The notes below the pieces were generated by a model that worked only from the letters and a program-made list of their open reading frames with translations, was not told the DNA's origin and ran no database searches. The translations under genes were made by a program, and so were the position numbers. Shown piece by piece: positions 583-26,002 of a DNA stretch of 47,869 nt. The stretch is from Scenedesmus sp. PABB004. Lineage: Eukaryota. The stretch lies in the NCBI GenBank assembly GCA_014905635.1, contig JABVCE010000047.1, forward strand, positions 62,001 through 109,869. Direction: 5' to 3'. Position 1 is the first letter of the stretch. Every line of letters begins with the position of its first letter.

Positions 583-1692
583 ATGTGCGCGGCAGGCCAG
601 CACGGCGCTCAAGATGCTCGGGGTGCGCGCCGCGCGGGCACGCCAAGGGCGGCCACGAGCGCTTCACGCCGCATGCCCGTCGCTCACCGACCGCCCGCGG
701 CGCGCGCAGGCGAGCCCAAGCCGGCCAGGCTGGAGGCGCCGTCCCGCGCCGCCGCCGGGGCGAGCCTGCTGGCCCGGCTGCGGCGCCAGGTGACGGGTGC
801 GGCCAGGCAGAGCAATGACCAGCTGCTGCCTCCCGTCACGCACTCTGGCGGCGAGGACGAGAGTGCCGCTGCCGCGGGCGACGCCGGCAGCCCAGCGCGC
901 GCGCAGCGCAGCGCCCTCGCGGCGGCCCGGCTGCAGCGCCTGTCGCAGCGGGTGCCGTCGCCCACCACCAGCACCAGCAGCGGCAGCAGTGTGGAACCGC
1001 TGCGCAAGCGCCCCGCCGAGGGGGGCGGCGCGGCGGAGCTGGTTCAGCGCCACAAGCTGGCCAAGGCGGCCTACGACACCCTCACGCGTCCGCAGCGGCA
1101 GCGCGACGACGACGAGCACCGCAGCCAGCAGCCGCAGCGCCCAGGCGACCTGGCGCCGGCGCCGTCGCTGCCGGCGCTGTCGGTGGTGGTGCGCGCGCTG
1201 CTGCAGCTCGCGGCGGAGCACGGCTCGCCCGCGGTGGCGGCGCAGCTGCGCGACCAGCTGCTGGCGCAGGTCAAGGCCGCGACCGCGGCCGCGCGCGGCG
1301 CGGGGCAGCCCGCCAGCGTGGCGGCGGCGCTGCACGGCGCGCTGCCGGCGCTGCGCGCCGCGGTGCGGGGCGTGTGCGGCGAGGCGCAGCTGGAGCTCGC
1401 GGCGGCGGCGCTTGCTGGCGAGGACGCGGCGGCGGTGGTCATCCTGCCCGAGGCGGCGCCGCGCCCAGGTCGCGGCGGCGACGCCGGGCCGGCGGCCTGC
1501 CCGGCCCGCGGCATCGCCGGCGGGGCGGCGAGCGCCCTGGAGACGGCCCTGCTGCAGGCGGAGTGCGAGGTCCAGCTCGGCGGGCTGGCGCTGGCCGAGG
1601 CGCGCGGCGGGGGCGGCCTGAAGCTGGGCGAGGCAGACATGGAGGCCCTGCTCGCCGCGGAGATGGCGTCGGCGATGGCGGCCGAGCTGTGA
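583..1692 (+). CDS. Hypothetical Ala/Leu-rich protein (start at ATG 583 or 673 uncertain)
   Basis: Open frame with coding-like codons (CTG/GAG/CAG) and helical-looking segments, ending at TGA 1690-1692 and followed by lower-GC UTR-like sequence. No recognisable domain. Confidence 0.5.
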   Translation: MCAAGQHGAQDARGARRAGTPRAATSASRRMPVAHRPPAARAGEPKPARLEAPSRAAAGASLLARLRRQVTGAARQSNDQLLPPVTHSGGEDESAAAAGDAGSPARAQRSALAAARLQRLSQRVPSPTTSTSSGSSVEPLRKRPAEGGGAAELVQRHKLAKAAYDTLTRPQRQRDDDEHRSQQPQRPGDLAPAPSLPALSVVVRALLQLAAEHGSPAVAAQLRDQLLAQVKAATAAARGAGQPASVAAALHGALPALRAAVRGVCGEAQLELAAAALAGEDAAAVVILPEAAPRPGRGGDAGPAACPARGIAGGAASALETALLQAECEVQLGGLALAEARGGGGLKLGEADMEALLAAEMASAMAAEL

Positions 1693-2239
1693 GGCGCGCC
1701 GCCAGCACGGCGGCGCCCTGGCGAGCACGGCCGCGCTGGCTTGATCTGACCTGCCCCTTGCACACTGCATAGTGGCGGCATGTTTGCGCTCGCCGCCCGC
1801 ACCCCCCTTTCGGCTATTGCAACGCTGCGTGTGCGGATGCCCCCCTTCCTTTGGTGAGCACTGCAGGGCAACAGCCCTACGCCGGGCCTCGATGCCCCTT
1901 GACACCACCTAGAAAAGCCTGCCGCGCCTGCATGCCTTTATTCTCGGTGCCAACCAACTGCGACGTGCATATCTTGCTGGTGGGCATCTCTTCATAACAC
2001 GGCAGTCAATGCGTTCGTTGATCGATCGGGCCTATGCTGCATGCGGACCTCACTGCGCGTGCCGCCTGCAAACGGGTCGGAGCTCGGCAATGACTCTCTT
2101 TTAATGCTTATGATCGCTTATGATCGCCGCCGTCCCCAACACCAACGCCAACCCCAATCGCGCCAACCTCGCCTGCAGCTCGTGCCCCTGCCCAGGCCGT
2201 CAGACCTCTCCCGCACCCCAGTGCCTGCTCAGCCTCGGC

Positions 2240-5200: not shown

Positions 5201-8200
5201 TGAGGCTGCGCAGCGCGCGCAGCAGCGCCACCGGGTCGTCCACGTCCCCCACGCACGCCAGCAGCTGCAGCCACTCGTCCGAGCCGCGCTGCAGCGCACC
5301 CAGCAGCTGCTGGCTGGCCGCGCTCGCCCCGCGCGCGACCGCGGCTGCGGGGGCGCCGGCCCCCGCTGCCGCCGCGCCGGTGCCGTCGCCGCCGCCGTCG
5401 CTGAGCTCTGGAGAGCTCGGCGCAGCACTCGCGCCACGCGGCGGCAGTCCCTGCGCTACGGCCTCGGGGCTGCCCAGGCGCTCCTGCAGCTGGTCCACGA
5501 GCAGCTGCTGCTGCGCCAGCGGCCCAGGGCTGCCGGCGCCGGCGGCTGCCGCGCCTGGCGGCTCCGCTTCGGCCGACCCCGCCGCGCCGGCAACAACGCC
5601 TGGCGTGGCGGCGCGGCTGTTAGGGAAGTCCTCGCTGCCTGGCGAGGCCTGCGTGCGCCCGACCATGCCCAGGAGCTGCTCCGCTGCCAGCCAGCTGCCA
5701 CTGGCAGGCAGCAGCTCCGCGACAGGCACCGCCGTGGCGCCGCCGCCCGCCTCGCCAGCCGCTGCTGCAATGGCGGCCGCCTGCTGGGAAACAGCAGCTG
5801 CCTCGCAGCCGATTGCTGCCTCCGGGCTCGCGCCGCCGTCCACGCTGCTGACGGGCTGCAGCTCCGCCGCCTCCGCCTGCGCCAGCTCCGGAGGCGGCTC
5901 TCCCGCGGCTTGCTGCGCCGCGGCCGCGGGTGGGCTGGCAGTCTCCGGCTGCGGCTGCGCCCTGTCCGAGGGGCTGGCCAGGCCGCTGGGGCTGCTCCAG
6001 CTCTCACCGCCGCTGCTGGCCCGGGGCGTGGCCACGCCCGCGTCGCGTGCAGCCTCGGCGGGCCAGCCAGAGGCCAGGAGGGCGTCCATGGGCGGCCGCG
6101 GGGCCGCCGGCAACAGCCGGCGCTGCAGCAGCGAGGGAAGGGCCGCCGCGCCCGCCTGCGCCGCCAGCACACCGCTGCCGGGCCGGCCCCCAGGGGCGTA
6201 GGCGGGCGTGGAGAACTCCTGCTCCGGTCGCAGTGCCGCCGCGGCACGGGGCGTCTGCGGCGTGGAGTCGCCACGGCACGCCCCGGCGCCGCGCTCCGCG
6301 CCGAGCCCGCCTGCCTCGGCAGGCGCGGGTGCGGGTGCGGGCAGAGCGGGCAGTGCGGGCTGCACCGGCCAAGCCGCCGCCTCGCCTGCGCCGCTGCCGT
6401 CCTGCAACGACGCCTGGGAGAGCTCAGACTCCAGAAACTGCAGCGCAGCGCCCGCGAGGTGGAGCAGGGCGCTGTCGAGCATGGTGGCCTCGCTCACGGC
6501 CGGGCCGCCGCGCCCCTCTGCTGCCTGCACCAGGGCGCCAGGTGCGTCCAGGGCCGGCAGCTCCGCGGGCGCCCACGCCGCGGTGAGCGGCCCAGAGAGC
6601 GCCGCCGCCTCTGGCGCGGAGCGCAGCGGCCGGGGCGAGACGGCCAGCGGCCGCACTGCCCCCAGCGAGGCTGCCGCTGCACAGCCGCCGCCGCCGTCGC
6701 CGCCGCCATCAGGTCCATCACGCGTGCTGCTGAGGCGCCGGCTGTAGCGGAAGGGGCTGCTGGGCACCATGCCGGAGGGGCGGGCGGGCGAGTAGAAGGC
6801 GGCCGCGCTCGGCACGTCCAGGGAACCACCACCCCCAGCACATGAGCTGCGGGGCGACCTCACGTCAGCCGCCTGCAGGCTGGCCTCCTGCTGGTGTGCT
6901 GCCAGCGCCGGCGAATCTGTCTGCAGCGCTGGGTGCGCCGCGTCCGTCTGGCCCGCCGCGTCCGCCAGCTCTGCAGCCGCCTGCTGCGCCGGCGCATCTG
7001 TCTGCCCCGCCGCGTGCGCCTGCTGCGCCGCGTCCGTCTGCCCCGCCGCGTGCACCTGCTGCGCCACGTCCGTCTGGCCCGCCGCGTCCGCCAGCTCCGC
7101 AGCCGCCTGCTGCGGCGCCGGCGCATCTGTCTGCAGCGCCGCATGCGCCTGCTGCGCCACGTCCGTCTGGCCCGCCGCGTCCGCCAGCTCTGCAGCCGCC
7201 TGCTGCGCCGGCGCATCTGTCTGCAGCGCCGCGTGCGCCTGCTGCGCCGCGTCCGTCTGCCCCGCCGCGTGCACCTGCTGCGCCACGTCCGTCTGGCCCG
7301 CCGCGTCCGCCAGCTCCGCAGCCGCCTGCTGCGGCGCCGGCGCATCTGTCTGCAGCGCCGCGTGCGCCTGCTGCGCCGCGTCCGTCTGCCCCGCCGCGTG
7401 CACCTGCTGCGCCACGTCCGTCTGGCCCGCCGCGTCCGCCAGCTCCGCAGCCGCCTGCTGCGGCGCCGGCGCATCTGTCTGCAGCGCCGCGTCCGCCACC
7501 AGCACGCCTGGCAGGTGCAGCTCCTGCCAGCATGGCAGGCCTTGCTCGTGCTGACCCTCCTGCTCCGCCGTGCGCAGGAGCAGCAGCAGCTGGTCGGTCA
7601 AGTTGGCGCTGCCCGCGAGGCCCCGCGTTGCCGCAGCGAGAGCAGCAGCTACCGCCGCAGCTGCGCCCTCGTTCGCCGCTGCTGCCACGCGAGCAGCCTC
7701 CCGCTCCGCTGCGTCCGACCCGCTCTCCGGGCCGTCGCCAACCTGACACGCCACGTCGACGCCAGGCGGCTGCGCCGCGCTGGAGCCTCGACTCGAGGAG
7801 CGACGCTGCCTGCCCCTGCTGACCGGGTGAGGCACGTGGATGCGCCGGCTGCTGTGCGGCGCGACACTGCGCTGGAAGGCGGTTGCCAGGTTGCGCTGGA
7901 CGCCTGGGCTCCAGCCGCTGCCTGCTGCTGCTGCTGCCCCCCCGCAGGTGGCTGCAGCCTCGCCAGCGGCCCTCTGTATGCTCCTGTCGTCGCCGCCGCC
8001 GCTGCTGCTGTCGCCGCCGCTGCTGCTGTCGCCGCAGAAGCTGATGCTGCCACTGGCCGGCGCGTGAGGGTGCAGCACAGAGGCCAGCAGGCTGGCAGTG
8101 CCTGCGGCAGCGTCGTCCCCGCTGCTGCTGCCGCTGCTGTCGCTGCCCAAATGCAGCAAGCGCGCCCGCTGCACGAGCCTGCTGGGCGGCTGCCGCTTGC

Positions 8201-9554
8201 GCACAGTCGTCAGCCACTCTGACAGGTCCCAGCTGCGTTCAAAGCCGACCGCACGCCCGGCTGCTCCGCCGGCCGTTGGCCAGTCGCCGTGCAGCCTGGC
8301 GGCGCGGTTGGCTGGCGCCGAGGCCGCCCGCTGGCCGGCTTTGAGCGCGACCAGCTCCGCTGGCGGCGGCGGCGTGGCAAAGGGCGCTGGCGCGGGCTGC
8401 ACCGCGCCCTGGCTGCCGGCGGCACCGCCGCGGCCGCTGCTGCTCGCGCTGGGGCTTTCTGCGCTCAGCGTGCGGTCGAGGCCAGCCGCGGCGGCCGCCT
8501 GCTGACGCCGCGGCTGCTGGCGCGCCAGCCTGAGCACGCTGGCGTCCTCGCCGCGGCGGGGCGCCAGCCCGCCAGCCCGCTGCGCGCTCGCTGCGTTGCC
8601 GTCATCCGACAGCTCCACGCCGCGCGCGCGTGCGCGCAGGCGCTCCTCGAGCTCCCCCCTGACGCTTGCAGGCGGGGGCGGCGCGTGTGACTGGCGCTCC
8701 CCCTCTCCCTGGTGCTGCTGAAGCTTTCGGAGCAGCTGCGTGAGGGCTGCGTGGCTCGGCGGCGTGCCAGTGACGTGCGGCTGCAGCACCGCCTGCTGCT
8801 GCTGCCCCCGCATCGCCTGCAGCCGGTCGTAGAGCTTCGCCAGCGGCAGGGGGCTGGGCGAGGCGCGCAGCTGCGCCCCAACCTGCTCCTGCAGCCGCAG
8901 CTCCCAGTCCAGCTGCTCCTCGCGCGCCAGCTGCTCCTCGCGTGCCGGCTGCTCCTCGCGCGCCTGCTGCTCCTCGCGCGCCAGCTGCTCCAGCGGCGAG
9001 CGCCGCCGCGCGGCGGGGCTGTCGGCGCGCTGGGCCTGCAGCTGGGCCGCTGGCGGCTGCAGCGCCTGGTCCGCGTGAGGCGCAGCGTCGCTGCTGAGCG
9101 CCGCCTGGCGCGCCTGCCGCGGCAGCGATGGGGGCGTGCCCGCCGGCCACTGCGCCCGCTCAGAGGGGCTGCTGCCAGGCGCCACGCCGGGGTTTGTCCT
9201 GAGCTCCTGCTCGCGCTTGGCCATGCTCAGCAGCGAGGGCGCCACGCCGCGCGTGCCCAGGACGGCCCGGGGCGAGCCGACGCCGGGGCTGGCTTCGGCG
9301 GCCGGCGGCGACGCGCGCGCGCCGCCCTGGCGCACGCCGCGCCGGCCGCGCGGCTTGGCCGCCGCCTCCCCGGGGCTGGGCTGCTGCGGCTGGCGCGGCG
9401 GCGTGCGCTTGTCAAGCGGCACGCCCCGGGCGCGCGCGTCCTGGTCGCAGCTGGGCAGCTGCGCGGCCCGCGCCGCGCCGCTGGCCACCAGCTGCGCCAC
9501 CGCGTCATGGCGCGCCGGCGGGGGCGAGCACGCGCCTCCGCACTCGCCCTCCAT
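2240..9554 (-). CDS. Very large (~2,400 aa) low-complexity, probably disordered protein; one 3' intron
   Basis: 7.3 kb open frame from ATG 9554. GT-AG intron at 2436-2310 (CCG|gtgcgc...gtcac...cacag|GCC) gives the C-terminus ...DALLNRPPLAELWLQLLSERAPGSAGQP* with TGA at 2240-2242. Confidence 0.7.
3691..3770. repeat. 15-bp coding tandem repeat (EPAA[G/E/S]), about 5 copies
   Basis: Repeated ggctcgcccgccgcc / ggctcctccgccgct units. Confidence 0.8.
6915..7497. repeat. Coding tandem array with a ~129-bp higher-order unit, encoding 14 [G/L]QTD motifs
   Basis: Near-identical modules (DAAGQTD, HAAGQTD, HAALQTD, APAPQQAAAELA) are visible in the DNA and in the 2441-aa translation. Confidence 0.95.
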
Positions 9555-10128
9555 CGCCGCCGCCGCTCAAGCGAGCTGTCGCCCGGCCGACCGAGCCAGG
9601 CGCTGCTGCATGCGCCCAGCCAGCGCCAGGGAGCACACCCCGCAGGGCGCTGAGTTCCACGCCGCTGCCAGAAGGCAGCGCCGGGTGCGCACGGCGCCTG
9701 GGCGGCGAAAGCTGCGCACGGCGCGGGGCGGCGCGGTCAGGCGGCGGCGCGGGCACCGCCACGCGAGCGCCTGGAGGCGCGCAACCGCAAGCTCCGACGC
9801 ATCGGCGGGCTGTCTGAGGCCGCAGCGGTCGGGGCGGCCCAACTCGACGCGGGCCGCTGCCGGTGCCCCCCGCGCAGCACTCGCTGCGGCCCGCTCGTGG
9901 ACGTGCGCGCGCTGCGTCTCACCTGCGTGCCGTGCCGGCGGGCGTGGGCGCGCGCGCGGCCGCGCGTTGTTGCCGGCCGGGCTGCGCAGCCACCGCCGCG
10001 ATCGTGAGCTGGGCGTGCCGGAGAGACCGCGCAGTGGCGCTGGGAGAGCGCGGCGGGCTCGGCGTCGCGCGTGCGAGCAGTCAAACTTTCGCGCCTCAAC
10101 CGCAACCGCCGCGTGACCATGAGCCTTG

Positions 10129-13100
10129 TCAGCCGCCGCGGCCCAGGAGCTGCGCCTGCACCGCGCCGACCGTCCACGCCAGCTCCCCCTGCTGGGTGGC
10201 GGCCAGGTGCTCCAGCACCGGCAGCGCGACGGCGTGCAGGTCGGGCAGCACCGGCGCGACCGCGTCGAGCGGCAGCCACGCCAGCAGCGCCCCGAGCAGC
10301 CCCACCGCGACGGCGGCCTCGCCGACCTGCGTGCCGCTGCGGGTGCCGCTCGGCGGCGCCGCGTCGCCGTCCTCCAGCCCCGCCCACTCGCCGCTGAGGC
10401 CAAACTGCGCGAGCGCGCCGTGCAGCGCCTGCAGCAGCAGCTCCTCGCGCTCCGCCGCGCCCACGCGCGCCGCCAGCATCGGCGACAGCCGCTGCCGCCC
10501 GGTGCGGTCCAGGCCCACGCCCGCCTCCGCGCCGTGCTCGCCCGCCAGCGCCGCCAGCAGCCGCGCAGCGCACGCGCGCGCCCGGCTGGCGCGCACGCCC
10601 GCGGCGTCGGGGGCGCCGCCGCCGGCGTCGCGCCCGCCGCGCGCGCCGAGCAGGGCCAGGCCCGCGCGGAAGGCGCCGACCCACGCGGCCGCGCCGCCGC
10701 CGCCCTCCGCCGCGCCCCACGGCGCGGCGGGCGCGAGGGACACGGCGAGCGCCGCGCCGCGCGCGGCGGCGAGCGCGTCGCTGCCGCGCATGGCCGCGAC
10801 GAGCGCTGCGCCCAGGCTTCGGTCCGCGCCCGGCACGCCCTCCTCCCACAGGCTGCCCGCGAGCAGCGCGTGCACCGCGGGGCGCACCGTCGGCTCCGCG
10901 AGCGCGTGCAGCGCCGCCGCGGCCGCGCCGCCCGCGCCCGGGTGCTCCTGGTGGCGGCAGAGCAGCAGCAGCAGCGCGCGCGCCGTCTGGCTCGCCGCGA
11001 GGCTGCTGCAGAGCTCGACCGTGCCGGCGCAGGCGCCCGCCGCCGCGAGCGCCTCGGCCGCCGCGGCCGCGGCGCCGAGGTCGGGGCTGTGCAGCAGCGA
11101 CACGCAGCCGCCCCACGGGCTGCCGCCGCCGCCGCCCGCGGCGCAGAGGCGCCGGCAGAACGCCGCGTGCGCGCCGGCGCCGCCGTCGTCGAGGCCGCCG
11201 CCGGCGCCGACGCCCGCGGCGAGCGCGTCGCCCGAGGCGAGCAGGATGGCCGCGAGCTGCGCCGCCTTGGACGCGAGCTCGGGCGAGCCGGCGGCCAGGC
11301 AGGCCGCGAGCGCGGGCACGGTGTCGGCGTGCGCGCACAGCGGCGCCGCGAGGCTGTGCCCCGCCTGCGTGCACACGTCGCCGCGCGAGAGCGGGCGGAA
11401 GCAGCTGTCGTGCGGGTCGACGCGCGGCGTGAGGTGCAGCAGCACGTCCAGCGCGGCGCCGGCCAGCGCGTGCACGCGCTCCCGCCACGCCGCCTGCGCC
11501 GCAGCCGCCTCGGGGCTGGGCTCTCCCGCGCTGCGCGGCGCCCGATCCGCAGGCGCCTTGCGCTCGCTGCCGCCGGCCAGGCGCGACTGCAGCGCTGCCT
11601 TGGCGCCCCGCCACCAGCCGGGCTTGCGCCCCTTGCCCTCCTGGTCGCGCTGCGCCGCCGTGTCGCCGCCGCCGCTGCCGCCGCCGCTGCCGCTGCCGCC
11701 GCCGCTGCCGCTGCCGCCGCCGCCCTCCTGCCCCTCCTGCTCGGCGCCGTCGCCCCGCGCGTCCTCGAGCTGCAGCAGCAGCTCCATGACCTGCGTCAGC
11801 GCCGCCGCGTCCCAGGGGTCGGCCGCCAGCATGCCCTCCAGCTGGCCCATCATCGCCGCCACGACGTCGCCAAAGCCGGCGGGCGCGGGGGCGGCGGCGC
11901 CCTCGTTCGCGTCGTCCGCCTCGGACACGCGCTGCAGCTGCTGCTCGTTGGGGGCGCCGGTGAGGCTGCGCCGCGCGTGGCGGTGCTTGTGCTTGTGGCG
12001 GTCGCGCGCCTTTTCGCGCCTTGCCAGCTGCAGCTCCTCCAGCACCGACAGGATCTGGTGGATCGCCGCCGCCTCGTCTCCCAGCTTGGCGTCGGCCAGG
12101 CCCAGCAGCCCCGCCACCAGCCCGCTGTCGGTCAGCGAGCTGTCGCCCGGCGGCACGAGCTGCTCCGGCGGCGCCCGCCTGCTGCCGGCGCTCGGGCCGG
12201 CCCCGGCCGCGGCGCTGCTGCTGCTGGCGCCGTTGGCGTCGCCCCTGGCCGCGGCGGGCTGCTGCGCCAGCAGCGCCGCCTCCTTGCAGACCCACTTGAG
12301 CATCGACGGCAGCTGCTCGGGCTCGGTGCGCTCGTCGCCGATGTGGCGCAGCAGGCCGCGGCCGAGCTGCTCCAGCGCGTCGTGCCGCGTCACGCGGTGC
12401 TCCGCCACGCGCGCCGCCAGCACGCGCAGCTGGCGCAGCGTGCTCTCGGGCAGCGCGTCCTGGGGCCGGCGCGCGGCGCGCGGCTTGCGTTGGGCGGTGC
12501 CGCCCCCTCGGGCGGGCCGCGCCGCGCTCCCCCCGCCGCCCCCTCACCGGCAGCAGCGGCACGTCCAGCAAGCCCTGCACCGCGCCGCCCGCGACCTTGA
12601 GCTCCGCCGCCAACAGGCAGCGCACGTCTCGCGCCTGCAGGACGCGCAGCAGCCAGTGCTGGACCCGGCAGGCCTGCACCGCGCCGTGCAGCCCGCGCAG
12701 GCAGGAGTGCACGCCGGCTGCGCGGCGGCGGGCGGGCGCGACAGCGGGACGGCGACGTGAGGCGGGCGGCGGCGGCCGGCGGTGACGGCGGGGACGACCG
12801 AGCTGCCAGCGCGGGCTCAGGGAGCTGCGCGCCACCCACCGACGGCGGCCAGCAGCTGCTCGTCGCCGGCCACCTCCTCGCTCTGCAGGGCGGCCTTCTG
12901 CAGCCGGGTGACCACGTGCGTCAGGTCGGCCGCGACGTCACCGATGAGCGCCACGTCGCGCGTGTTGAGGTCGGCTGCGGCGGCGGCGGCGGCGGCGGGC
13001 AGCGGCGGCACGTCGGGCGGCGGCGGGCGCGACGGGGAAGGTGGCACACGCGGCCTGCGTTCGTCAAGAGCAGGGCGACCTGCGCTGCCCAGCGAATGCT

Positions 13101-15534: not shown

Positions 15535-17501
15535 TCACCGCCACCGCCGCGCTGCCTGCGCGCCCGCAAGCGCTCCCGCGCTGACGCCGCTGCCGCCGGT
15601 GGCGCCAGACCAGGCGCCGCCAGAACCGACGGCGCCCGACCAGGCGGCGCGAGACCAGGCTGCGCGGGCCGAGCGCGCGAGCGAGCGCGCGCTGCCGGCG
15701 AGCCACGCGCCCGCGCTGCGCGCGGACAGCACCGCCGCCGACAGCGCCGTCGCCGGCGCCGCCGGCGCCGTGCGCGGCCGCAGCGGCGGCGGCGGCGCGT
15801 AGCGCGCGACGCTGTGGTGCGTCACCGTGGCCTGCAGGCTGGCCGCGAGAGCGATCTCGCGGCCCGCCTCCGCCGCGGCGCGCTCCCCGAGCACGCTCAA
15901 TCCCGCCAGCAGCGCCTCAAGCTGCTGCACCAGCACCGCGGGCGGGCCCCGCGCCTGCCCGCCCGCGCCGCCGCCCATGGCGGCCAGCAGCGCCCGGAGC
16001 GACGCGCTGCGCGGCACGTGGCGCCGCTGCGGGGCGCGGCCGCCGCGCGGCGGCGGCGGCAGCGCGTCGCCGCCCGCGGCGCCGCCCGCGGCGCCGCCCG
16101 CGCCCAGCCGTGGGCGCGCCGGCCGCGCGGCGGCGCCGTCGGCGCCCGCGAGCGGCCCGCCCGCCGGCGGCGCGCTGCCGGCGGCGGAGAACGAGTCCAT
16201 GGCGTCAAAGCAGCACCCCGCCGGCGGCGCGGGCGGCGTGCCCGCGGCGCCCGCGGCAGCCCCGCCCAGCGCCGCGCCGAGGCGGCCCAGGTCGCCGACG
16301 TCCTGCAGGCTGCACGTCACGACGCCGCCGCCGTCGCAGCCGTCGGCGCCGCCCCACGCCGCAAAGGCGGACGCAAACGTGGGCGGCGGCGCGGCGTGGC
16401 CGAGCTCCTGCAGGCCCCACAGCGCGTCGCTGAAGCCCGGCAGCTCCGGCGCGTCGGGTGGCTCCTCCCCCGGGTGGCCCTGGGCGCCCGCCTCGCCGGG
16501 ATGGCCCACATCCCCCGCACCCTCGCACGCCGCCGCGACCATGGCCGCCAGCTGCGCGGCGCTCAGCGCCACCGCGTCGGAGCAGCTGCGGCTGCCCAGC
16601 AGCAGCGGCACCTCGAGCGACGGCTCGCTCCCGAGCAGCGTCTGCTCCTGGCCGTCGTCGCCGCCGCCGTCGCCGCCGTCGCCGCCGCCGGCTGCGCCGC
16701 CAGCGAGTGCTGGCAGCAGGCCAGAGCTTGAGGGCCAGCTCTCGGCGACGGGCCTCTGCGCCGCGCCCGGCCCAGGCGCCGGGCCAGCCTCAACGCGGTG
16801 GGACCAGCCGCCCTGGCCAGCCAGCGCCGCGTCCAGCACCTCCGTCCGGGCACTAACGCTGCCGACTGGCGCGGCGCTCGGCGCAGCCGCGACGCCCCCC
16901 TCCGGAGGCGGGGGCGGCGGCGCGCTTGGCGGCCTGCGCTGCTGCAGCGACGCCGCGCGGCGGAGCGACGGTGGCCGCGGCGGCAGCGCCGCCGATGCCT
17001 GCCGCAGCTCCCCCGGCCACAGCTGCTCCGCCGGCTGCTGCTCCAGCGGCTGCGGCACCTGCTCCTGGCCCTGCTGCAGCTGCTGCTGCAGCTGCTGCAG
17101 CTGCTGCTGCCCCTGCTGCTGCCCCTGCTGCCCCTGCTGCCGCCCGAAGCGGCCCTTGTGCAGCGGCGAGGCCTCCTCGACCTGCACGACCAGCCGCGGT
17201 GCCGCCTGCGCCGCTGCCTGCGCCGCCGTCTGCGCCGCCGCCTGCTGCTGCGCCGCGGTGGCGCGCAGGAAGTCGTCGGCGTCGTGCCGCGCCGCGCCGC
17301 GCAGCAGCTCGGCGACCGAGTCGGGGCTGTGCCGCGCGCTCGCGAGCTGGCGCGACAGCAGGGAGACCTGGCGCGCGGACGCCGACGTCGCATGCTGGTG
17401 CTGCTCGCCGCCGGGGAGCTGATGAGCTCGGGGAAGGGCTGCGGCGCCGGCGCCAGCAGCGGCGGCGCGTGCGGCGCCGGCGGCGCGGCCGCACGCCCCA
17501 T
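15535..17501 (-). CDS. Hypothetical low-complexity poly-Q protein; 5' end uncertain
   Basis: Long coding-like frame 15535-~17440. A short intron after ATGGGGC (ATG at 17501) would supply an in-frame start. No domain recognised. Confidence 0.45.
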
Positions 17502-19901: not shown

Positions 19902-21506
19902 CGGCCTGCCCCAGGCCTCCTCCACCATCGCCGCCTCCTGCTCGGCCGCCTCCTGCTCCTGGCTGTCGTCGCCGTACCCGAGCTGCTCAACGCCGCCCCC
20001 GCCGCCCACGCGCAGCGAGGTGAGCGAGGAGAGCTCGGCGAGGCGCAGCAGCTCCCAGCCCAGCGAGCAGGCTGGCATCACGAGCTCGCACAGCCACGTC
20101 AGCCGCAGCACGGCGCCGAGGCCCTGCACTGTCGCGGTCGCCTCGAGGGAGGTCAGGCCCGCCGGCAGCACCTCGCCGCCCTCAAGCAGCGGCCGGCCCT
20201 GGCGAACGGGGCGGCAGGCTGGGTGGGGCGCGTGCGCCTGCGCGGGCCGCGCGCCGCCTGCGGCCCAGGCACAGCGCGCGCCCGGCGGCGCGCCGCCTGC
20301 GCGGCGCAGAGTGCGCGCCTGGGGCACGAAGTGCTGCGCGACGTCGGCCTCGTCGCCGTAGCCCTCGTCCTCGGGCGGCGGGTCGGCGCGCAGCGCCAGC
20401 CGGCGCAGCCGGGTGAGGTGCTGCAGGTTGAGCGCGCCCTCCGGGTGCGTCGTGAAGCCCAGCGTCAGCGACTCGAGGCTCGCCGGAAGCCGCGCCAGGG
20501 CGCTCGCCAGCTTGCGCGGCGTGCCGCCGCCGACGCGGGGCAGGCACAACGCCGTCAGCCCGCTCAGCGCGCGCAGGCCGCCGCAGAGGCCGTGCAGCGG
20601 CAGCGGGGGGAACGAAGGGGCCTGCGTGGGCACCGCGCTCACGTCGAGGGACGCGAGGTGCGGCAGCGCGGCCAGCGCGGCCGCGAGCGCGGCGGGGTCG
20701 TGCGTGGTCTCGTCCTCGTCATATACGGTCAGCGACAGGGCCGTGAGCAGCGCGCCCGCGACCGCGGACAGCACCGCCGGGCTGGCCGGCGACAGCGCGA
20801 GCTCGCGCAGCGCCAGGCCGCCTGCGCGCGCGCGCCGCACACGGGCGGCGGCCGTGAGCAGCAGCGCGTGCGTCTCTGCGGTCGGCCGCTCGCGCGACGA
20901 CCGGTCGTCCGCGCCGCGCGCGGCGCGGGCTGTCTGCTGGGCGGCGGCCTCACCCTTGGCGGCGACGGCGCGCAGCGCCGCCACCACTGCCGCCTGCTGC
21001 TCGATGTCGGGCGCGCGCCCCGCGTAGGGCGAGCTGTGGTCGTTCTCCCACCCGCAGCCGCCGCACATCCCGCAGCAGCCGCAGCAGGCGCGGTAGGCGG
21101 GCGCGGGGCGGGACAGGAAGTCGTCCGTGATGGGCGCGGCCACGCGCGGCAGCTGGAGGTCGAGCGCGCCCAGCAGCGCGCCGTGCCGCGCCAGCCAGGG
21201 GGCAATGTGGCCGACGTTGACGGCGTCGGCGTCGGTGTCATAGAGCCATTTCCCGCGGGCGGCGAGCGCGCGCGCTTCGGAGGGCGGCGGCAGCACGCCG
21301 CGCACGCGCCCGCGTCGCGCGGCGTGCGTGGCGCGGCTCAGCGCGTGCGAGACGCACAGCAGCCGGCACACCAGCGCCTGCTCGGCCGTCGGCTGCTCAG
21401 CGAGCAGCAGCGACAGCACGAGCTCCTCGCGAGGCGTCGCTGCCGCGAGCGGGCCCGCGGCCGCTGCCGGCGGGTCCCCCGAGGTGGCGCGCTCGGGCTC
21501 GGCCAT
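19818..21506 (-). CDS. Leucine-rich-repeat-like protein (algal LxxLxL type)
   Basis: ATG at 21506 (MAEPERAT). Repeats include LRELAL, LTALSL, LPHLASLDV, LSGLTALCL, LPASLESLTL, LTRLRRLAL and LSSLTSLRV. One in-frame GC-AG intron at 20318-20199. TGA at 19818. Confidence 0.7.
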   Translation of the reverse strand: MAEPERATSGDPPAAAAGPLAAATPREELVLSLLLAEQPTAEQALVCRLLCVSHALSRATHAARRGRVRGVLPPPSEARALAARGKWLYDTDADAVNVGHIAPWLARHGALLGALDLQLPRVAAPITDDFLSRPAPAYRACCGCCGMCGGCGWENDHSSPYAGRAPDIEQQAAVVAALRAVAAKGEAAAQQTARAARGADDRSSRERPTAETHALLLTAAARVRRARAGGLALRELALSPASPAVLSAVAGALLTALSLTVYDEDETTHDPAALAAALAALPHLASLDVSAVPTQAPSFPPLPLHGLCGGLRALSGLTALCLPRVGGGTPRKLASALARLPASLESLTLGFTTHPEGALNLQHLTRLRRLALRADPPPEDEGYGDEADVAQHFVPQARTLRRAGGAPPGARCAWAAGGARPAQAHAPHPACRPVRQGRPLLEGGEVLPAGLTSLEATATVQGLGAVLRLTWLCELVMPACSLGWELLRLAELSSLTSLRVGGGGGVEQLGYGDDSQEQEAAEQEAAMVEEAWGRPGVVASLAAARARGATSAQLLELAEGLV

Positions 21507-21679
21507 TGCGGAGCGGCTGGCGGTGCTGTCCCGCGCAGGGACGGCGAGCGGCGCGTGGCGGGCAGCGGCGGCCTGAACGCGGCCAGGAGGCCGCAGCAGG
21601 CCCGCACGCGGCGGTTTTGGCAAGAGGCGGATCGCAGGCGGCGATCGGAGGGCACACGGACGCAGCAGCAGCAAGGGGG

Positions 21680-22117
21680 CGCCCCGACGCGTCGCGACGA
21701 CGCCCGCCCGCCTGCCGCGCGCGCGCGCCCGATCGCTCCGATCGCTGTGCCCTCTGGGTGTGCTCTTGTGCCTGCCCTCCTGACGCCCGGGGTGCTGCGT
21801 GCGCGAGCGGCGGTGCTGCTGCGCGCCGCGCCACGCCAACCGCCGCCAACCGCTGCGCGCGGGGCGCGAGCGCGCAAAGCCTCTGCCAACTGCATTTCTC
21901 AGGCAGACTGCATGCCTCGCAAAGCGGCACACAACTTCCTGCACGCACGCGAGCAATGGACCAGCCCGCTCACACACGTTCAGCCCGCCAGGCACCAGCC
22001 GGCCGGGCGCGCCCTTGCGCTCGCGCGCGGCGCTCAGACCAGCCCCTCCGCCAGCTCCAGCAGCTGCGCGGACGTCGCGCCGCGCGCGCGGGCGGCCGCC
22101 AGCGACGCCACCACGCC
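21680..22117. repeat. Direct repeat copy B (~440 bp)
   Basis: See copy A. Contains the same GVVASLAAARARGATSAQLLELAEGLV* tail. Confidence 0.95.
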
Positions 22118-22281
22118 GCACGCAACCGAGGCTGGAGAGGTGCCTGCGGGCGGCGGCGCGCGGGCGCGCGGGCGGCGGCGCGCGGGCGGCGGCGCGCGGG
22201 CGTCAGCTCGGGCGCCGCCGCTCGCGGGCTGGACCGCAGCGCGCACGCGTCAACGGCAACCGCAGTTCCAGCCCCGCGCGA

Positions 22282-22358
22282 GGCCTCGGCCCCTTAGATG
22301 TACCATCACAGAGATCAGGTTGTGTATTAGGTCTGTCTATTGGTTTTCGTCAGTGGCC
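22282..22358 (-). ncRNA. Box C/D snoRNA guiding 18S GCCC[Um]UAGAUGU (plant snoR19-like)
   Basis: C box UGACGA, D' CUGA, C' UGAUGG, D CCGA, terminal GGCC stem. Guide ACAUCUAAGGG is complementary to conserved 18S CCCUUAGAUGU and D+5 falls on U. A second element, ACAGACCU, matches the adjacent AGGUCUGU. Confidence 0.8.
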
Positions 22359-22429
22359 GGCGGGGCTGGCCGCGGCTGCACGCACGCACACGCACGCACA
22401 CGCACGCAGCCACGCAGCCACGCACGCAC

Positions 22430-22521
22430 GGCTCTCGGGAAGAGAGTTAAAGTGTGTCCACACCCCGGCAGGCGACACGCCTGCCGGTCGGTCCACTATT
22501 TGATTGCCTCGTCACCGAGCC
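22430..22521 (-). ncRNA. Box C/D snoRNA guiding LSU AAG[Am]GAGUUAAA (U26/U81 region)
   Basis: C box UGACGA (22509-22514), D box CCGA (22435-22438), GGCUC/GAGCC stem and an internal hairpin. Guide UUUAACUCUCUU is complementary to the LSU 5' domain sequence AAGAGAGUUAAA. Confidence 0.75.
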
Positions 22522-22763
22522 CACACCAGCGTCGTTGCCGCAGCGCGCGCAAGTCACGCGCGCACGCGCACGCGCAGCGCCGGGTGGCCCACCTGGTGCT
22601 CGCTCGCTCGCTCGCTGTCGGCCCTCTGCAGGTGCGCCTGCAGCAGGGCAGCGGCGGCGCGGAAGGGCGGCGTGAGGGCGGCGGCGCGCGTGAGGGCGTG
22701 AGGGCGCGTGAGGGCGGCGCGCGGGGTTGCGCAGGTGCGGGTGTGTGGGTGTGTGGGTGCGGG

Positions 22764-22930
22764 TGGTGTCGCGGGCGTAATTCGTCGGTGCTCATCGCGC
22801 GCGAGCGCTCGCACTCACGACTCAAACGACCGCATGTTGGTGTGTGCCCTATGGGGACCCCGGCCCTACGGCGCGTGCAAGCGATGCCGTGCCGCACGCG
22901 CTAACGAGCTGGGGGAAGATTGGGCAGTTG
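22764..22930 (-). ncRNA. Two-hairpin box H/ACA snoRNA; 3' pocket snR36-like (18S UAAUU[psi]GACUCAA)
   Basis: H box ACACCA and terminal ACA at 22767-22769. The 3' pocket UUGAGU/AAUUA sits ~14 nt from ACA. The 5' pocket AAUC/UCCCCAU fits 18S AUGGGGA[psi]AGAUU. Confidence 0.7.
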
Positions 22931-23022
22931 GGTGTGCGACGACGACGGTGGTGTAGGCGAGCAGGCAGGCGCGGCGGCAGCAGCAGCAGCAACGGGCGCG
23001 CGCGCGCGACAGCAGAGCAGGA

Positions 23023-23090
23023 GGCCTCAGCAGCCATTGTATCATCACGCGTCAGCCGGTAATTCCATATTTGCAAGAGCATCACCGGCC
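23023..23090 (-). ncRNA. Box C/D snoRNA, snR77-like (18S CGG[Um]AAUUCC, yeast Um578)
   Basis: C box UGAUGC, D' CUGA, C' UGAUGA, D CUGA, GGCC stem. Guide UGGAAUUACCG, with D'+5 on the expected U. Confidence 0.88.
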
Positions 23091-23167
23091 CGCCTGCTGC
23101 TCGCGCACGCCAGCGACAGCGACAGCAGCAACACGGCACACGCACACAGCACGCGCGCGCCCGGGGA

Positions 23168-23235
23168 GGCTCAGGACTTCTTAGAGGTAAGATCATCAGG
23201 AGTCTGTGGATTGACAGATAAGTGTCATCGTCGCC
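23168..23235 (-). ncRNA. Double-guide box C/D snoRNA: U61-like (18S ACU[Um]CUUAGAGG) plus snoR14/SNORD110-like (18S GGA[Um]UGACAGAU)
   Basis: C box CGAUGA, D' CAGA, C' UGAUGA, D CUGA. Guides CCUCUAAGAAGU and AUCUGUCAAUCC are both complementary to conserved 18S sequence and both obey the +5 rule. Confidence 0.9.
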
Positions 23236-23310
23236 AGGGCGCGCGCGCACCGGAGCTGCACACGCACACGCACGCGCGCGCGCGCGCGGCCACGCCCCGC
23301 GGGGCACCGC

Positions 23311-23396
23311 GCGGAGCTCTCAGAGACCCATTCATGCATCACTAGGATCAGTCGGCACTTCCTAACGTTGGGATGGGTTCAGCACCGAGCTCCGCG
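23311..23396 (-). ncRNA. Box C/D snoRNA, U49-like (LSU UCGG[Cm]UCUUCCUA)
   Basis: 9-bp terminal stem GCGGAGCUC/GAGCUCCGC, C box UGCUGA, D' CUGA, C' UGAUGC, D CUGA. Guide UAGGAAGUGCCGA has one U:U mismatch and D'+5 falls on C. Confidence 0.82.
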
Positions 23397-23672
23397 CCCA
23401 CGCACGCGCACGCACCGAGACACACGCACGCGCGCACGCGCTGGCACCAGCGCGCGCAGCCAGAAACACAAAGTGTGCGCGGCCGCTGGCCGGGTCGCGC
23501 GCGGGCGCACCTGCGGGCGCGGCGTGTGCTCGGGGTCGCGTGGCGCACGCCGGCGGGGGCTGGGCCTGGGCGCAGGCGTGGGCGTCGGCGGGCGGCGGGC
23601 TCGGTGTGCGGCGCGGCGCGCGCGGCGCGGGGGCGTGGGGCTGGCGCGGGGCTGGCGCGGGGCTGGCGCGGG

Positions 23673-23832
23673 CGATGTTGCCACCGTTATGGCACTGGCC
23701 GAGCCCTGGGTTGGTGCGGTGGCCAGCTTCCTATAGTGGCGGGTGCTCTCAGCACAACTCCAGCAGACGAGGTCAGCGCGGCGCAGGCGCCGGAGCGCCT
23801 GCGCTGCTCCCACGCCCGTGGCAGAGAGGCTG
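23673..23832 (-). ncRNA. Two-hairpin box H/ACA snoRNA, snR34/U65-like (yeast LSU psi2826 and psi2880 equivalents)
   Basis: H box AGAGCA (23744-23749) and ACA (23676-23678). The 5' pocket CUGCCAC/GCUGG fits CUGGC[psi]UGUGGCAG. The 3' pocket AUAGGAA/GCC fits GGC[psi]CUUCCUAU. Confidence 0.78.
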
Positions 23833-24072
23833 GAATGCGTGTGCCGGTGCCGGCTGGCTGCTGGCTGCTGGCGCGCTGCGCGCTGCGCGCTGCGCGCATG
23901 CGCATCCCATCCAGCCCGCTCACCAGGCATGGGGGTGTTGGGAGGGAGCGGCAGTAGCAGCGGCGTCAGGCGGTCGACGCGCCCTGGGCAGACAGCGAGG
24001 CGGGGCGTGGCGCGAGGGCAGCGTCAGTGTCCGACAACGGCGCGCGGGGAGGCGGCGCGAGCGCGTGTGGAG

Positions 24073-24212
24073 GGGTGTTTGAGCCTGGTTTGACACAGGG
24101 CCGGTGGTGGTGCACCTGCCCTGCAACACGAAGCCCACGTCACTGTAGCACACGCAACAGGGACATGCAATGCACAGAAGGCACAGCTGTCCGGGGTTTG
24201 GTGTGTGCAAGT
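24073..24212 (-). ncRNA. Box H/ACA snoRNA, snR35/SNORA13-like (18S UUUGAC[psi]CAACACG, m1acp3-psi site)
   Basis: The 3' hairpin pocket CGUGUU/GUCAAA lies 16 nt from ACA (24076-24078). The upstream hairpin ends in ACAGUG (imperfect H box or a separate single-hairpin RNA); its target is unassigned. Confidence 0.8.
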
Positions 24213-24407
24213 TGCGCCCCGGCCCCGCGCCCGGGCGTCCGCGCGAGCACGGCGGGCTCACCTCGCGGGCGAGCGCGGACGGGCGCGGAGGGCTCGAGGA
24301 GTCTGAGGCTGAGGCAGGCCTGCACACGGCGCGCGGCAGGGCGGGGCGGGCGGGGTGGGTGCGCTCCGACGAGCGTGCGCGCGAGCGCGGTGCCGGCGGG
24401 CAGCGGT

Positions 24408-24553
24408 GCTTGTGCCAGCGAGACAGGTCAGCGGCGGCCCACGGCGGGAGGGCCGCGCTGGTTTATGGTCTGGCGAGGCCGTGGCCTGGTGTGCGCTCCC
24501 CATGACACCCGTTGTGCACAGAATCACAACAGGCAACGCCTCTGTGAAGAGCG
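24408..24553 (-). ncRNA. Two-hairpin box H/ACA snoRNA (LSU AUGAC[psi]GAACGCCUCU and snR42-like GAGACAGGU[psi]AGUUU)
   Basis: H box ACACCA (24487-24492) and ACA (24411-24413). Pockets AGAGGCGUU/GUCAU (14 nt from H) and AAAC/ACCUGUCUC (15 nt from ACA). Confidence 0.85.
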
Positions 24554-24827
24554 GTGCTGCCGGCAGCGCGGCGGCGCGCGGGCCGCGGCTGCAGCGGCCG
24601 CGCGCGGCGCGCGACGGGACAGCAGGCCGGGGCGCCCCGGCACACACGCACCAGGCGGCTGGAGCCGTCAGGGGCCGTCAAGCGGGGAGGTGGCGCGCGC
24701 TGCGCCTGCGCGGGCGCCGGAGGCGGGCGGCGCGTGAGCGCGTGCGCGCGCGCGGCGCGGGCATGTTCGCGCCCCCGCAGCAGGCAGGCGGCGTCAGCGG
24801 CCGCCGGCGCGTGGCGGCGGCGCGGGC

Positions 24828-24893
24828 TGGTGTTGCCTCTGTTTCATACCGCATGCCTCATCGGCGTCAGCATGCGGTTCAGAGCAGGGCATG
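24828..24893 (-). ncRNA. Candidate single-hairpin ACA snoRNA, target unassigned
   Basis: Stem UGCCCUG/CAGAGGCA, internal loop CUCUGA/AUGAAA, upper stem ACCGCAUGC/GCAUGCGGU, and ACA 14 nt from the top of the pocket. Confidence 0.6.
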
Positions 24894-24960
24894 CGCGCGC
24901 CGCGCGCCAGGCCGGCGCTGTCGCTGCCGCTGCGCCGCCGCGCGGTGGGGCGGCGGCGGC

Positions 24961-25060
24961 GAGGTGGCTCGGTGGTGGCGTTGTGTGTTCGATTCCGTGC
25001 CGGTTTGCATCCCCACGGCGTGTCGGTAGAGGGAACCTGGGTATCGTCATCGCCGACCTC
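24961..25060 (-). ncRNA. Box C/D snoRNA, snoR30/SNORD100-like (18S AGA[Gm]GGAGCCUG)
   Basis: C box CGAUGA, D' CCGA, D CCGA, GAGGU/ACCUC stem. Guide CAGGUUCCCUCU has one G:U pair. A second element, CGGAAUCGAAC, is complementary to the adjacent 18S GUUCGAUUCCG. Confidence 0.82.
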
Positions 25061-26002
25061 GCCGCCGCCCCCGCGCGCGATCGGCCGTCGCCGCCGCGGC
25101 GCCGCGCTGCGGCGCACCTGCTGGCGTCGGCGCGCTCCGTGGATCGGCGCGTACGGCGGCGGAGAGCCTTGTGAGAGCCTTGTGCATCGCGAGGTCGGCG
25201 CTGCGGGGCGCGCGGCGGGCCCTGCGGGGCGCACGGGGCAGGGGCGGCTGGGCATTCGGCAGCAGGTGCCCGCGGCGGCGCTGCGCAAGGGCTGGAGGTG
25301 CCCGCGCGCCCGGGGTGCTCGTTGCACGCGCCCAACCTCTTACTGCCACGCGCGTGCGGCAGGGCGCGCCCTGTCCGCGCCAGGGCTGCCGCCCGCGCCT
25401 GGATCGCGCCCTGCTATGCGCGCGTGCGGCCGCGCTGCGCGGCCGCGCCCGCCCGGCAGTCGCGCACCTTCGCAGCCTAACCTGCCGGGCCAGGCCGTCG
25501 TCGCTGGGCGCGCTCAGCCGCCATCGATCTCGGCGGCCGCGCCTGGGGGGACCCAAGCTGGCGCGGCAGCGTCTGGCTGGGACTCGTTCATGGCTAATGC
25601 TGGGCGCTAGGCGGCGGCGGCGGCGGCGCCGGCTGCGTGCGGACGCGACGGCTCAAAAACCCTGCACCGCCGCCGTTACCCCGCGGCCCAGCTTTTTCTC
25701 GAGAGCTCCAGGAGCGCCGCTCCTCTGACGGCAGGTTGGCGTGCAGCAGACCACCGGCCGATGTTGCAGGCCGTGCCGCGCGACAAAAGAAGCGCATTTG
25801 TCGATCAACCGAGCCCTGACCAATCGAGTGGTGCACGCCAAGGCGGCCAAAATCGCACCGCGAGTCCAGTTCAGTGTGTCGCGCCGCGGGCACCGGGTCC
25901 CCCGACTGGAGGCCTGGAGAGCGAGCCCGGAGGGCGGGCGCACGGGCGCACGGGCGCCGCGCGCGCCCGTGCCGCGCCGCGCCGCGCTGTGTGCCGCGCA
26001 GC

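Follow-up and report, generated by a model that had tools for sequence, protein, structure and literature searches.

The stretch of DNA considered here (47,869 nt of contig JABVCE010000047.1, hereafter called the window) contains, on its minus strand, a locus of about 3 kb in which eleven small nucleolar RNAs (snoRNAs) are almost certainly encoded. Six of them are of the box C/D class and five of the box H/ACA class, and they follow one another from 25060 to 22275, flanked by two minus-strand genes: an aquaporin gene upstream and a gene without a Pfam match downstream. The G+C (GC) content is 76.8% across the window. Its proteasome gene RPT4 finds its best protein match in Tetradesmus obliquus (71% identity), with Haematococcus, Chlamydomonas eustigma, Trebouxia and Coccomyxa as the next matches. 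Because these best matches are chlorophyte, the source was treated as a very GC-rich green alga.

Low-GC units with snoRNA anatomy

A preliminary description of this DNA had proposed that 3 kb without a credible open reading frame (ORF) hide a non-coding host gene with snoRNAs in its introns. The islands of lower GC content on which it built are indeed concentrated here. With an island defined as 41-nt windows below 62% GC and a length of at least 60 nt, the window holds 74 of them; 12 fall in 22143-25190 (3.9 per kb vs 1.4 per kb outside). They correspond to 11 units, as one H/ACA unit splits into two islands, and each unit shows snoRNA anatomy on the minus strand. All six C/D units with their terminal stems and all five H/ACA structures of the earlier account were thereby recovered (sno1 to sno11; Table 1). 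The stop-to-stop ORFs of at least 150 aa in 22200-25600 are all flat in GC content by codon position (0.67-0.81), which agrees with the reported lack of a credible ORF; in nearby real exons, the three positions have about 0.68-0.83, 0.60-0.62 and 0.92-0.98.

Rfam searches, which the preliminary description had suggested as a check, returned snoRNA families on the expected strand, although none at the gathering score. In E-value mode, the search of 21500-25800 gave 21 rows, and 18 of them name snoRNA families on the minus strand; at E<=0.05 across the whole window, snoRNA families make up three of five rows, all three inside this locus. Seven families are matched in total (Table 1). As all seven scores lie below gathering, the matched units are called functional counterparts of these families here and not Rfam members. 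Elsewhere in the window, at 17032-17109 on the plus strand, a partial model of the bacterial small RNA isrG is matched (35.6 bits vs gathering 100, E 6.5e-6), a match that probably arises as an artefact of the GC-rich composition.

Targets in reference ribosomal RNA

Green-algal-type ribosomal DNA (rDNA) units from metagenome contigs, fetched with a published 18S probe, served as reference. One unit (L060) was annotated with Rfam (18S 1078-2878, 5.8S 3638-3791, large-subunit (LSU) ribosomal RNA (rRNA) 4141-10659, interrupted by group I introns), and three further units (L074, L052 and L004) were added by BLAST; pairings were required in all four unless stated. Of the eight group I intron matches that Rfam gives in the L060 unit (1078-11802), seven lie in the LSU and one at the 18S end; downstream of the LSU, a linked 5S gene follows. 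Listed modification sites were taken from Table 1 of PMC8053127 (Arabidopsis RiboMeth-seq) and Supplementary Tables 2-3 of PMC8351944 (Streit and Schleiff).

The complementarity of guides to their targets at known modification sites, like the snoRNA anatomy itself, is observed directly. Seven C/D guides and eight H/ACA pockets give 15 targets, 12 of which match, by spacing, listed Arabidopsis, human or yeast sites; in Arabidopsis, ten of these 12 are mapped and two (U1188 and U1192) are predicted only. A guide or pocket was found for every site that the preliminary description had named (those of snR77, U61, snoR14, U49, snoR30, snoR19, snR34/U65, snR35, snR36 and snR42). Its D+5 rule for C/D guides is obeyed; the pockets of the H/ACA RNAs lie 13-16 nt from the H or ACA box (14-16 nt in the preliminary description).

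Box C/D snoRNAs

All six C/D units have C and D boxes and flanking terminal stems of 4-14 bp, as well as internal C'/D' boxes and often an additional GC-rich outer stem. Their guides pair over 11-13 bp with rRNA segments that are identical in the four reference rDNAs, and for six of the seven the D+5 nucleotide matches a mapped Arabidopsis 2'-O-methylation (Nm) site by spacing. In the 18S rRNA, the targets are offset by 2-5 nt from the Arabidopsis numbering, with spacings that agree within 2 nt, and all five coincide with mapped Nm sites. With 44 mapped Nm sites in the ~1800 nt of Arabidopsis 18S rRNA, a single coincidence would occur by chance in roughly 1 of 40 cases. The families indicated by these sites (snoR30, snoR77Y, snoR14, U61 and snoR19) are also the families matched by Rfam, snoR19 excepted.

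The boxes themselves vary. Three of the six units combine UGACGA with CCGA, and the C boxes of sno7, sno8 and sno6 read ACGAUGA, GUGAUGC and GUGCUGA. In the kink-turn geometry that we assume for the UGACGA/CCGA combination, the usual U.U pair would be replaced by C.C. The CCGA boxes of sno1 and sno11 appear to be functional, since counting from CCGA leads to the mapped sites G390 and U1445. In sno10, a perfect 10-bp GC-rich hairpin (22465-22490, minus strand) lies between the D' and C' regions, and it is because of this internal hairpin that the RNA is ~92 nt long.

Beyond the main duplex, three units show extra pairing: sno1 over 11 nt (-15 to -5 from the target), sno8 over 8 nt (-12 to -5) and sno11 over 8 nt (-15 to -8). 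The last of these lies in the region of Gm1431, the second snoR19 site, and is not at D'+5 from any canonical box. Extra pairing beside the main duplex has been described for many Arabidopsis C/D RNAs (PMC8053127). Five guides, namely D of sno1, sno6 and sno8 and D' of sno10 and sno11, had no conserved rRNA target in this search.

Box H/ACA snoRNAs

Each of the five H/ACA units has the order hairpin, hinge, hairpin and tail, the stems being followed immediately by ANANNA and ACA boxes; the hinge of sno4 (ACAGUG) is off ANANNA at its last position. Nine of the ten hairpins fold with z-scores of -1.8 to -3.4 relative to mononucleotide shuffles. Within sno2, hairpin 1 reaches -2.6, and its pocket is fully complementary to the target and used over its whole length, while the GC-rich hairpin 2 (z -0.5) has no evident pocket.

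The eight pockets pair over 10-15 bp at 13-16 nt from the box, and six of them fall on listed pseudouridine sites, four of which are mapped in Arabidopsis (the other two being the predicted U1188 and U1192). Pseudouridines make up only about 4-9% of rRNA uridines in yeast and human (PMC12273003). The two pockets of sno5, with target uridines 54 nt apart, are both among these six and reproduce a pair of sites already known for a single family, which Rfam matches as well. The 18S targets of sno4 and sno9 are 4 nt apart, as are yeast U1191 and U1187. In the LSU, targets 5313, 5366 (that of the C/D RNA sno6), 5367 and 5462 (L074 numbering) are spaced by 53, 1 and 95 nt, identical to Arabidopsis 2816, 2869, 2870 and 2965.

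Early H/ACA searches were grouped by exact target string and missed the helix-31 pocket of sno4. For this pocket, an LSU match of 3+7 bp was dropped, as the 18S helix-31 match of 6+8-9 bp uses the folded pocket. The 5' pocket of sno4 has no convincing target, and pairing to Arabidopsis U1104, the second snoR134 site, was not found.

Table 1. Predicted features of the locus and its surroundings, with rRNA pairings, listed equivalent sites and Rfam matches. At, Arabidopsis; Hs, human; Sc, yeast. Rfam scores are given in bits, with the gathering score in brackets.
Feature	Positions	Strand	Structure or pairing	rRNA target	Listed equivalents, Rfam match or basis
sno1, C/D, snoR30-like	24965-25060	minus	C box AUGACGA (25050-25044); D' and D both CCGA (D 24975-24972); 14-bp outer stem		Rfam snoR30, 29.6 (60), E 0.0017
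sno1 D' guide (CCGA)			12 bp, 1 G.U	18S G388 (L060)	At G390, snoR30; Hs Gm436
sno2, H/ACA	24761-24891	minus	H box ACACCA; ACA 24766-24764
sno2 hairpin 1 pocket			6+6 bp, 14 nt to H box	18S U892 (L060)	no listed equivalent
sno3, H/ACA	24408-24553	minus	pockets in both hairpins
sno3 5' pocket			5+9 bp (L060), 3+9 bp (L004)	LSU, 135-136 nt 3' of the sno3 3'-pocket site	At U3100 (no guide assigned); Hs U4659
sno3 3' pocket			10+4 bp in four of four references, 15 nt	LSU 5462 (L074)	At U2965; Hs U4522; Sc U2975; snR42/snoR97 site
sno4, H/ACA, snoR134-like	24073-24210	minus			Rfam snoR134, 35 (40)
sno4 3' pocket			6+8-9 bp, 16 nt from ACA	18S 1189, helix 31	Sc U1191 (m1acp3-pseudouridine, snR35); Hs U1248; At U1192 (snoR134)
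sno5, H/ACA, U65/snR34-like	23673-23832	minus			Rfam SNORA65, 22.5 (70)
sno5 5' pocket			5+7 bp, 15 nt	LSU 5313 (L074)	At U2816 (U65); Hs U4373; Sc U2826
sno5 3' pocket			3+7 bp, 15 nt	LSU 5367 (L074)	At U2870 (U65); Hs U4427; Sc U2880
sno6, C/D, U49-like	23312-23397	minus	11-bp terminal stem; atypical C box GUGCUGA
sno6 D' guide			13 bp, 1 mismatch	LSU C one nt 5' of the sno5 (U65) target	At C2869, U49; Hs Cm4426
sno7, C/D, two guides	23167-23240	minus			Rfam SNORD61, 32.6 (43); Rfam snoR14, 22.1 (40)
sno7 D' guide (box CAGA)			12 bp	18S U1229 (L060)	At U1232, snoR14; Hs Um1288
sno7 D guide			11-13 bp	18S U1376 (L060)	At U1381, U61; Hs Um1442
sno8, C/D, snoR77Y/snR77-like	23019-23096	minus			Rfam snoR77Y, 41.7 (52), E 1e-5
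sno8 D' guide			11 bp Watson-Crick	18S 530-loop U577 (L060)	At U580, snoR77Y; Hs Um627; Sc Um578
sno9, H/ACA	22764-22926	minus	two pockets
sno9 3' pocket			5+6 bp in four of four references, 13 nt from ACA	18S 1185	Sc U1187 (snR36); Hs U1244; At U1188
sno9 5' pocket			7+4 bp, irregular geometry	18S 1542 (L060)	no listed equivalent
sno10, C/D	22430-22521	minus	C box GUGACGA (22515-22509); D box CCGA (22438-22435); 5-bp terminal stem; internal GC-rich hairpin
sno10 D guide (CCGA)			12 bp Watson-Crick	LSU 5' domain, A376 (L060)	not in Arabidopsis tables
sno11, C/D, snoR19-like	22268-22369, core 22358-22282	minus	10-bp outer stem; C box CUGACGA (22353-22347); D box CCGA (22289-22286)
sno11 D guide (CCGA)			11 bp, extendable to 15	18S U1441 (L060)	At U1445, snoR19; no human or yeast equivalent listed
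SNORD49 match	within locus	minus			Rfam SNORD49, 13.7 (37)
Putative first host exon	25118-25195, 5' end undefined	minus	donor G/GTGCGCC at 25118/25117
Putative exon 2, 54 nt	24652-24705	minus			splice motifs
Putative exon 3, 58 nt	24262-24319	minus			splice motifs
Putative exon 4, 60 nt	23924-23983	minus			splice motifs
Putative exon 5, 55 nt	23511-23565	minus			splice motifs
Putative exon 6, 33 nt	22593-22625	minus			splice motifs
Putative terminal host exon	21680-22143	minus	flat GC by codon position, 0.80/0.71/0.77
Aquaporin gene	exons ~26625-26026, stop near 26005	minus			Pfam MIP match
Downstream gene without Pfam match	ATG 21506, stop 19820	minus	GC by codon position 0.83/0.60/0.92
RPT4 introns	35875-35745, 35519-35396, 35290-35199, 35012-34856	minus	start GCGCGC, end CAG		alignment to Tetradesmus protein

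Controls and the case for chance

A number of observations count against a functional cluster. No Rfam family reaches its gathering threshold anywhere in the window, and five units (sno2, sno3, sno9, sno10 and sno11) have no meaningful family match, sno10 not even at E<=10. Sixty-two islands of the same definition lie elsewhere in the window. The C box of sno6 (GUGCUGA) is off consensus at a position essential for the kink-turn. All targets were tested on four foreign metagenomic rDNAs and not on the species' own rRNA, Arabidopsis numbering was assigned by spacing and base identity and not by alignment, and three of the 15 targets (those of sno2, the sno9 5' pocket and sno10) are absent from the listed sites. 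On an ad hoc duplex score, real guides (27-30) did not stand out from shuffles (95th percentile 26-30). Counts of distinct conserved H/ACA matches were 9 on the minus strand vs 11 on the plus strand, and under stricter rules 5 vs 4 (24 other segments of the window averaged 0.79). Requiring a lower stem proved too strict, with the U65-like pockets being lost.

As the shuffle score was not discriminating, a box-anchored test of conserved 11-mers was used instead. Among 617 CTGA or CCGA boxes on both strands of the window, four are preceded by a perfect 11-nt complement to a segment shared by the four rDNAs, and three of these four guides lie in this locus on the minus strand. GC-rich 11-mers match rRNA by chance throughout the window; conserved antisense 11-mers that contain A or T number six in the locus vs about five elsewhere, and the latter (+8234, -46982, -40064, -27990 and -2100) were rejected because no snoRNA anatomy surrounds them. 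A strict regular-expression scan for C/D RNAs on both strands gave a single match, sno10, and is too strict for a census. For the H/ACA RNAs, the count does not exceed that of the plus-strand control, so the weight rests on which sites are paired and not on how many.

It is from the gathering scores, the islands outside the locus and the weak H/ACA counts that one could argue for low-GC patches that arose by chance, or for degenerate repeats, in place of functional genes. We regard this as extremely unlikely, given that 12 of the 15 targets fall on listed sites by spacing, several of them having their Arabidopsis guides in just those families that Rfam matches here, and that all five 18S C/D targets coincide with mapped sites at a chance of roughly 1 in 40 each.

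Predicted introns of a host gene

The spacers between the snoRNAs fall into two classes, five of 59-92 nt and five of 199-275 nt. Each long spacer contains one predicted set of a CAG acceptor, a segment of 33-60 nt and a GGTG(A/C/G)G donor, in this order, and the short spacers contain none. The six junctions of the preliminary description carry splice motifs exactly where it had placed them; these are motifs in the sequence, and the loose donor motif is no commoner than estimated from base composition (see below). The predicted donors read G/GTGCGC (the slash marking the junction), GTGCGT, GTGAGC, GTGAGC, GTGCGC and GTGGGC, and every predicted intron ends in CAG. A tight donor motif (GGTG[AC]GC) occurs five times, four of which are predicted donors. 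C-rich tracts precede all six acceptors: over the 60 nt at the 3' end of each predicted intron, the C-over-G skew is 0.24-0.32, vs a mean of 0.08 for 67 CAG sites. A branch-like motif (CT[CGA]A[CT]) is found 33-69 nt upstream of four of the six acceptors. Spacer classes, C skew and branch-like motifs, all independent of the donor motifs, favour introns.

Seven introns of the window served as a benchmark: six from RPT4, rebuilt against the Tetradesmus protein, and one from the aquaporin gene, placed by Pfam-profile coordinates and reading frame. They are 92-235 nt long. Three of the seven start with GTGAGC or GTGCGC, and their heptamers are identical or nearly so to four host donors: the host heptamers GTGAGCC and GTGAGCG are those of two homology-verified RPT4 introns, and GTGCGC agrees with the aquaporin intron over six bases. 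The remaining four, all in RPT4, start with GCGCGC. Three of these have no in-frame GT donor nearby, and in the fourth a GT donor would insert 10 residues into a conserved ATPase segment. GC donors account for roughly 1% in most eukaryotes, far less than among these seven introns. Regarding abundant GC-AG introns in GC-rich chlorophytes, nothing relevant was found among the literature matches listed, which does not prove that none have been published. Between 22000 and 25300, the GC-donor-like heptamer GGCGCGC occurs four times on the minus (sense) strand vs 18 times on the plus strand.

Three findings speak against the host gene as drawn. The loose donor motif GGT[GA][ACG]G occurs eight times in 3.3 kb, vs ~9.6 estimated from base composition. 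With GCGCGC at the start of four of the seven benchmark introns, alternative exon layouts are possible, and since GC donors are this common, motif-based exon calls are unsafe. Finally, one frame of the spliced model has no stop and connects in frame with the ORF downstream, even though no credible ORF stands out in the region; stop-free frames are common at this GC content.

The donor frequency and the degenerate splice signals also leave room for a cluster without a host, in which eleven real snoRNAs would be cut by nucleases from an unspliced precursor of their own and the 'exons' would be mere spacers. Most land-plant and Ostreococcus clusters are of this unspliced, nuclease-cut kind, and the locus is intergenic, lying between the aquaporin gene and the downstream gene; of 12 clusters in Ostreococcus tauri, 10 are intergenic and independent (PMC7671301). 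An independent cluster would leave unexplained why the spacers come in two classes, with acceptor, short segment and donor in order in each long one, why two donor heptamers are identical to those of verified introns, and why C-rich tracts precede all six acceptors. The best RPT4 match is moreover to Tetradesmus, which belongs to the same class as Chlamydomonas, whose snoRNA clusters are reportedly extensively intronic (as worded in the title of Chen et al. 2008, Genetics 179:21). We consider an independent cluster unlikely, and lean towards the snoRNAs being intronic in a non-coding host as drawn.

Putative terminal exon and the downstream gene

The putative terminal exon carries a duplication. 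Positions 22118-21680 are a copy, 93-100% identical, of 19902-19463, which comprises the last ~85 coding nt of the downstream gene and ~355 nt beyond (its 3' untranslated region (UTR) and further sequence). The two copies form a direct repeat of ~440 nt at a spacing of ~2216 nt and bracket the body of the downstream gene. The copied coding part differs by two substitutions, both at third positions and towards G or C, and in the host its reading frame is blocked by upstream stops. No similarity was found between the remainder of the host and the downstream gene. We read this as a host that uses the duplicated 3' end of a neighbouring gene, with an assembly artefact as an alternative.

The same neighbourhood raises the question of whether the downstream gene could have these introns in its 5' UTR, which would make the host protein-coding. 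This gene is on the same strand, only ~175 nt separate the end of the duplicated copy (21680) from its ATG (21506), and frame 0 of the spliced model runs stop-free into its ORF. Yet no periodicity is seen in the 636 nt before this ATG (22142-21507; 0.80/0.71/0.77), and from the ATG onwards coding periodicity is abruptly present (0.83/0.60/0.92). At ~1 kb and with upstream ATGs in it, a 5' UTR of this kind would also harbour a duplicate of the 3' UTR of the very gene it precedes, and presumably of the polyadenylation signal there. A protein-coding host of this kind seems quite unlikely to us. In the spliced model of a non-coding host, the predicted exons have 0.73/0.73/0.82 GC by codon position, without the coding periodicity of this genome (real exons in the same comparison: 0.68-0.80, 0.61-0.62 and 0.93-0.95), and the first ATG (in exon 1) opens 35 codons that end in exon 2. 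With so short an ORF ending so early, the spliced host RNA would be a substrate of nonsense-mediated decay.

Proposed expression of the cluster

From this arrangement we infer the transcription, splicing and processing of the host, its non-coding status and the actual modification of the targets. The minus strand from 25.2 to 21.7 kb would be transcribed as a single unit by RNA polymerase II, with the 11 snoRNAs as its useful products. Its six introns would hold 2, 1, 1, 1, 4 and 2 snoRNAs and be separated by five exons of 33-60 nt. The host RNA would code for no protein and end in the recently duplicated copy of the neighbour's 3' end. After splicing, the introns would be debranched and then trimmed by exonucleases, with additional cuts needed in the 59-92 nt spacers of multi-snoRNA introns. 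Trimming would be halted at the C/D cores by Snu13, Nop56, Nop58 and fibrillarin, bound to the kink-turn closed by the terminal stems, and at the H/ACA cores by Cbf5, Nhp2, Nop10 and Gar1, bound to the hairpins.

The host in the style of GAS5 and UHG that the preliminary description had proposed is thus compatible with the motifs, the spacers and the non-periodicity, and remains an interpretation whose motif calls are weakened by the GC donors of four of the seven benchmark introns.

Comparison with known snoRNA hosts

The locus combines known features, resembling both the intronic clusters that are reportedly the rule in Chlamydomonas and the host genes of the UHG and GAS5 type. With Chlamydomonas it shares a chlorophyte nuclear genome, several snoRNAs per (predicted) intron, C/D and H/ACA RNAs that would both be intronic, and GC-rich flanks. 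Most Chlamydomonas clusters, on the other hand, are said to be tandem copies of one snoRNA in genes that encode proteins, while 11 different snoRNAs are spread here over six predicted introns of a host without coding signal. Introns 1, 5 and 6 hold two, four and two snoRNAs, introns being predicted throughout from motifs and spacers.

Non-coding snoRNA hosts are classic in animals, with vertebrate UHG and GAS5 and Drosophila dUHG as examples, all carrying one snoRNA per intron. The putative host resembles these in its short and poorly coding exons, its succession of snoRNA introns and its short, early-ending ORF. It differs from them in that three of its six predicted introns are polycistronic and in that its putative terminal exon was copied recently from the 3' end of a neighbouring gene. 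Another green alga, Ostreococcus tauri, likewise mixes intronic and polycistronic expression, with two of its 12 clusters intronic. The other ten clusters there are the intergenic ones noted above, and of its 131 snoRNAs, 72 have genes that sit singly in introns of protein-coding hosts (PMC7671301).

At the level of single guides, the same target nucleotides are addressed as by the land-plant and animal families snoR30, snoR77Y/snR77, snoR14, U61, snoR19, U49, U65/snR34, snoR134/snR35, snoR161/snR36 and snoR97/snR42, and the guide elements are conserved enough for sub-threshold Rfam matches to seven land-plant or animal families. Two differences stand out. The snoR14 and U61 guides are united in one RNA here (sno7), whereas in Arabidopsis they belong to two neighbouring genes of one cluster (PMC5122169). 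The snoR134-like sno4, furthermore, has no match to the second Arabidopsis site of that family, U1104.

Implications

The duplication and the drift of the boxes suggest a further scenario, which we regard as possible though doubtful: a young or recently rebuilt non-coding host could have obtained its last exon and terminator from the ~440 nt duplication of its neighbour, while extreme GC pressure would be reshaping its kink-turns (C.C in three of six C/D RNAs) and, in a neighbouring gene, the intron donors (GCGCGC). If true, the locus would offer a natural experiment on the origin of snoRNA hosts and on the drift of kink-turns and 5' splice sites.

Eleven guide RNA genes are gained from DNA that protein-based annotation would call 'intergenic'; such genes are a normal, though usually unannotated, part of a eukaryotic genome. 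Homology searches recovered almost no land-plant snoRNA families in green algae, for which a limit of the method was suspected (PMC5122169). Here, guide and target together make it possible to recognise, in a chlorophyte, what corresponds to about ten guide families of plants, yeast and human, with sequence models staying below threshold. Among the H/ACA RNAs, sno3 is a candidate guide for the equivalent of the pseudouridine at Arabidopsis 25S U3100 (human U4659), a site left without a snoRNA in the Arabidopsis table. The sites covered include the 530 loop and helix 31 of the 18S rRNA, with its hypermodified uridine, and domain V of the LSU by the peptidyl-transferase centre. With conserved sites concentrated in one locus, its deletion would test several modifications together.

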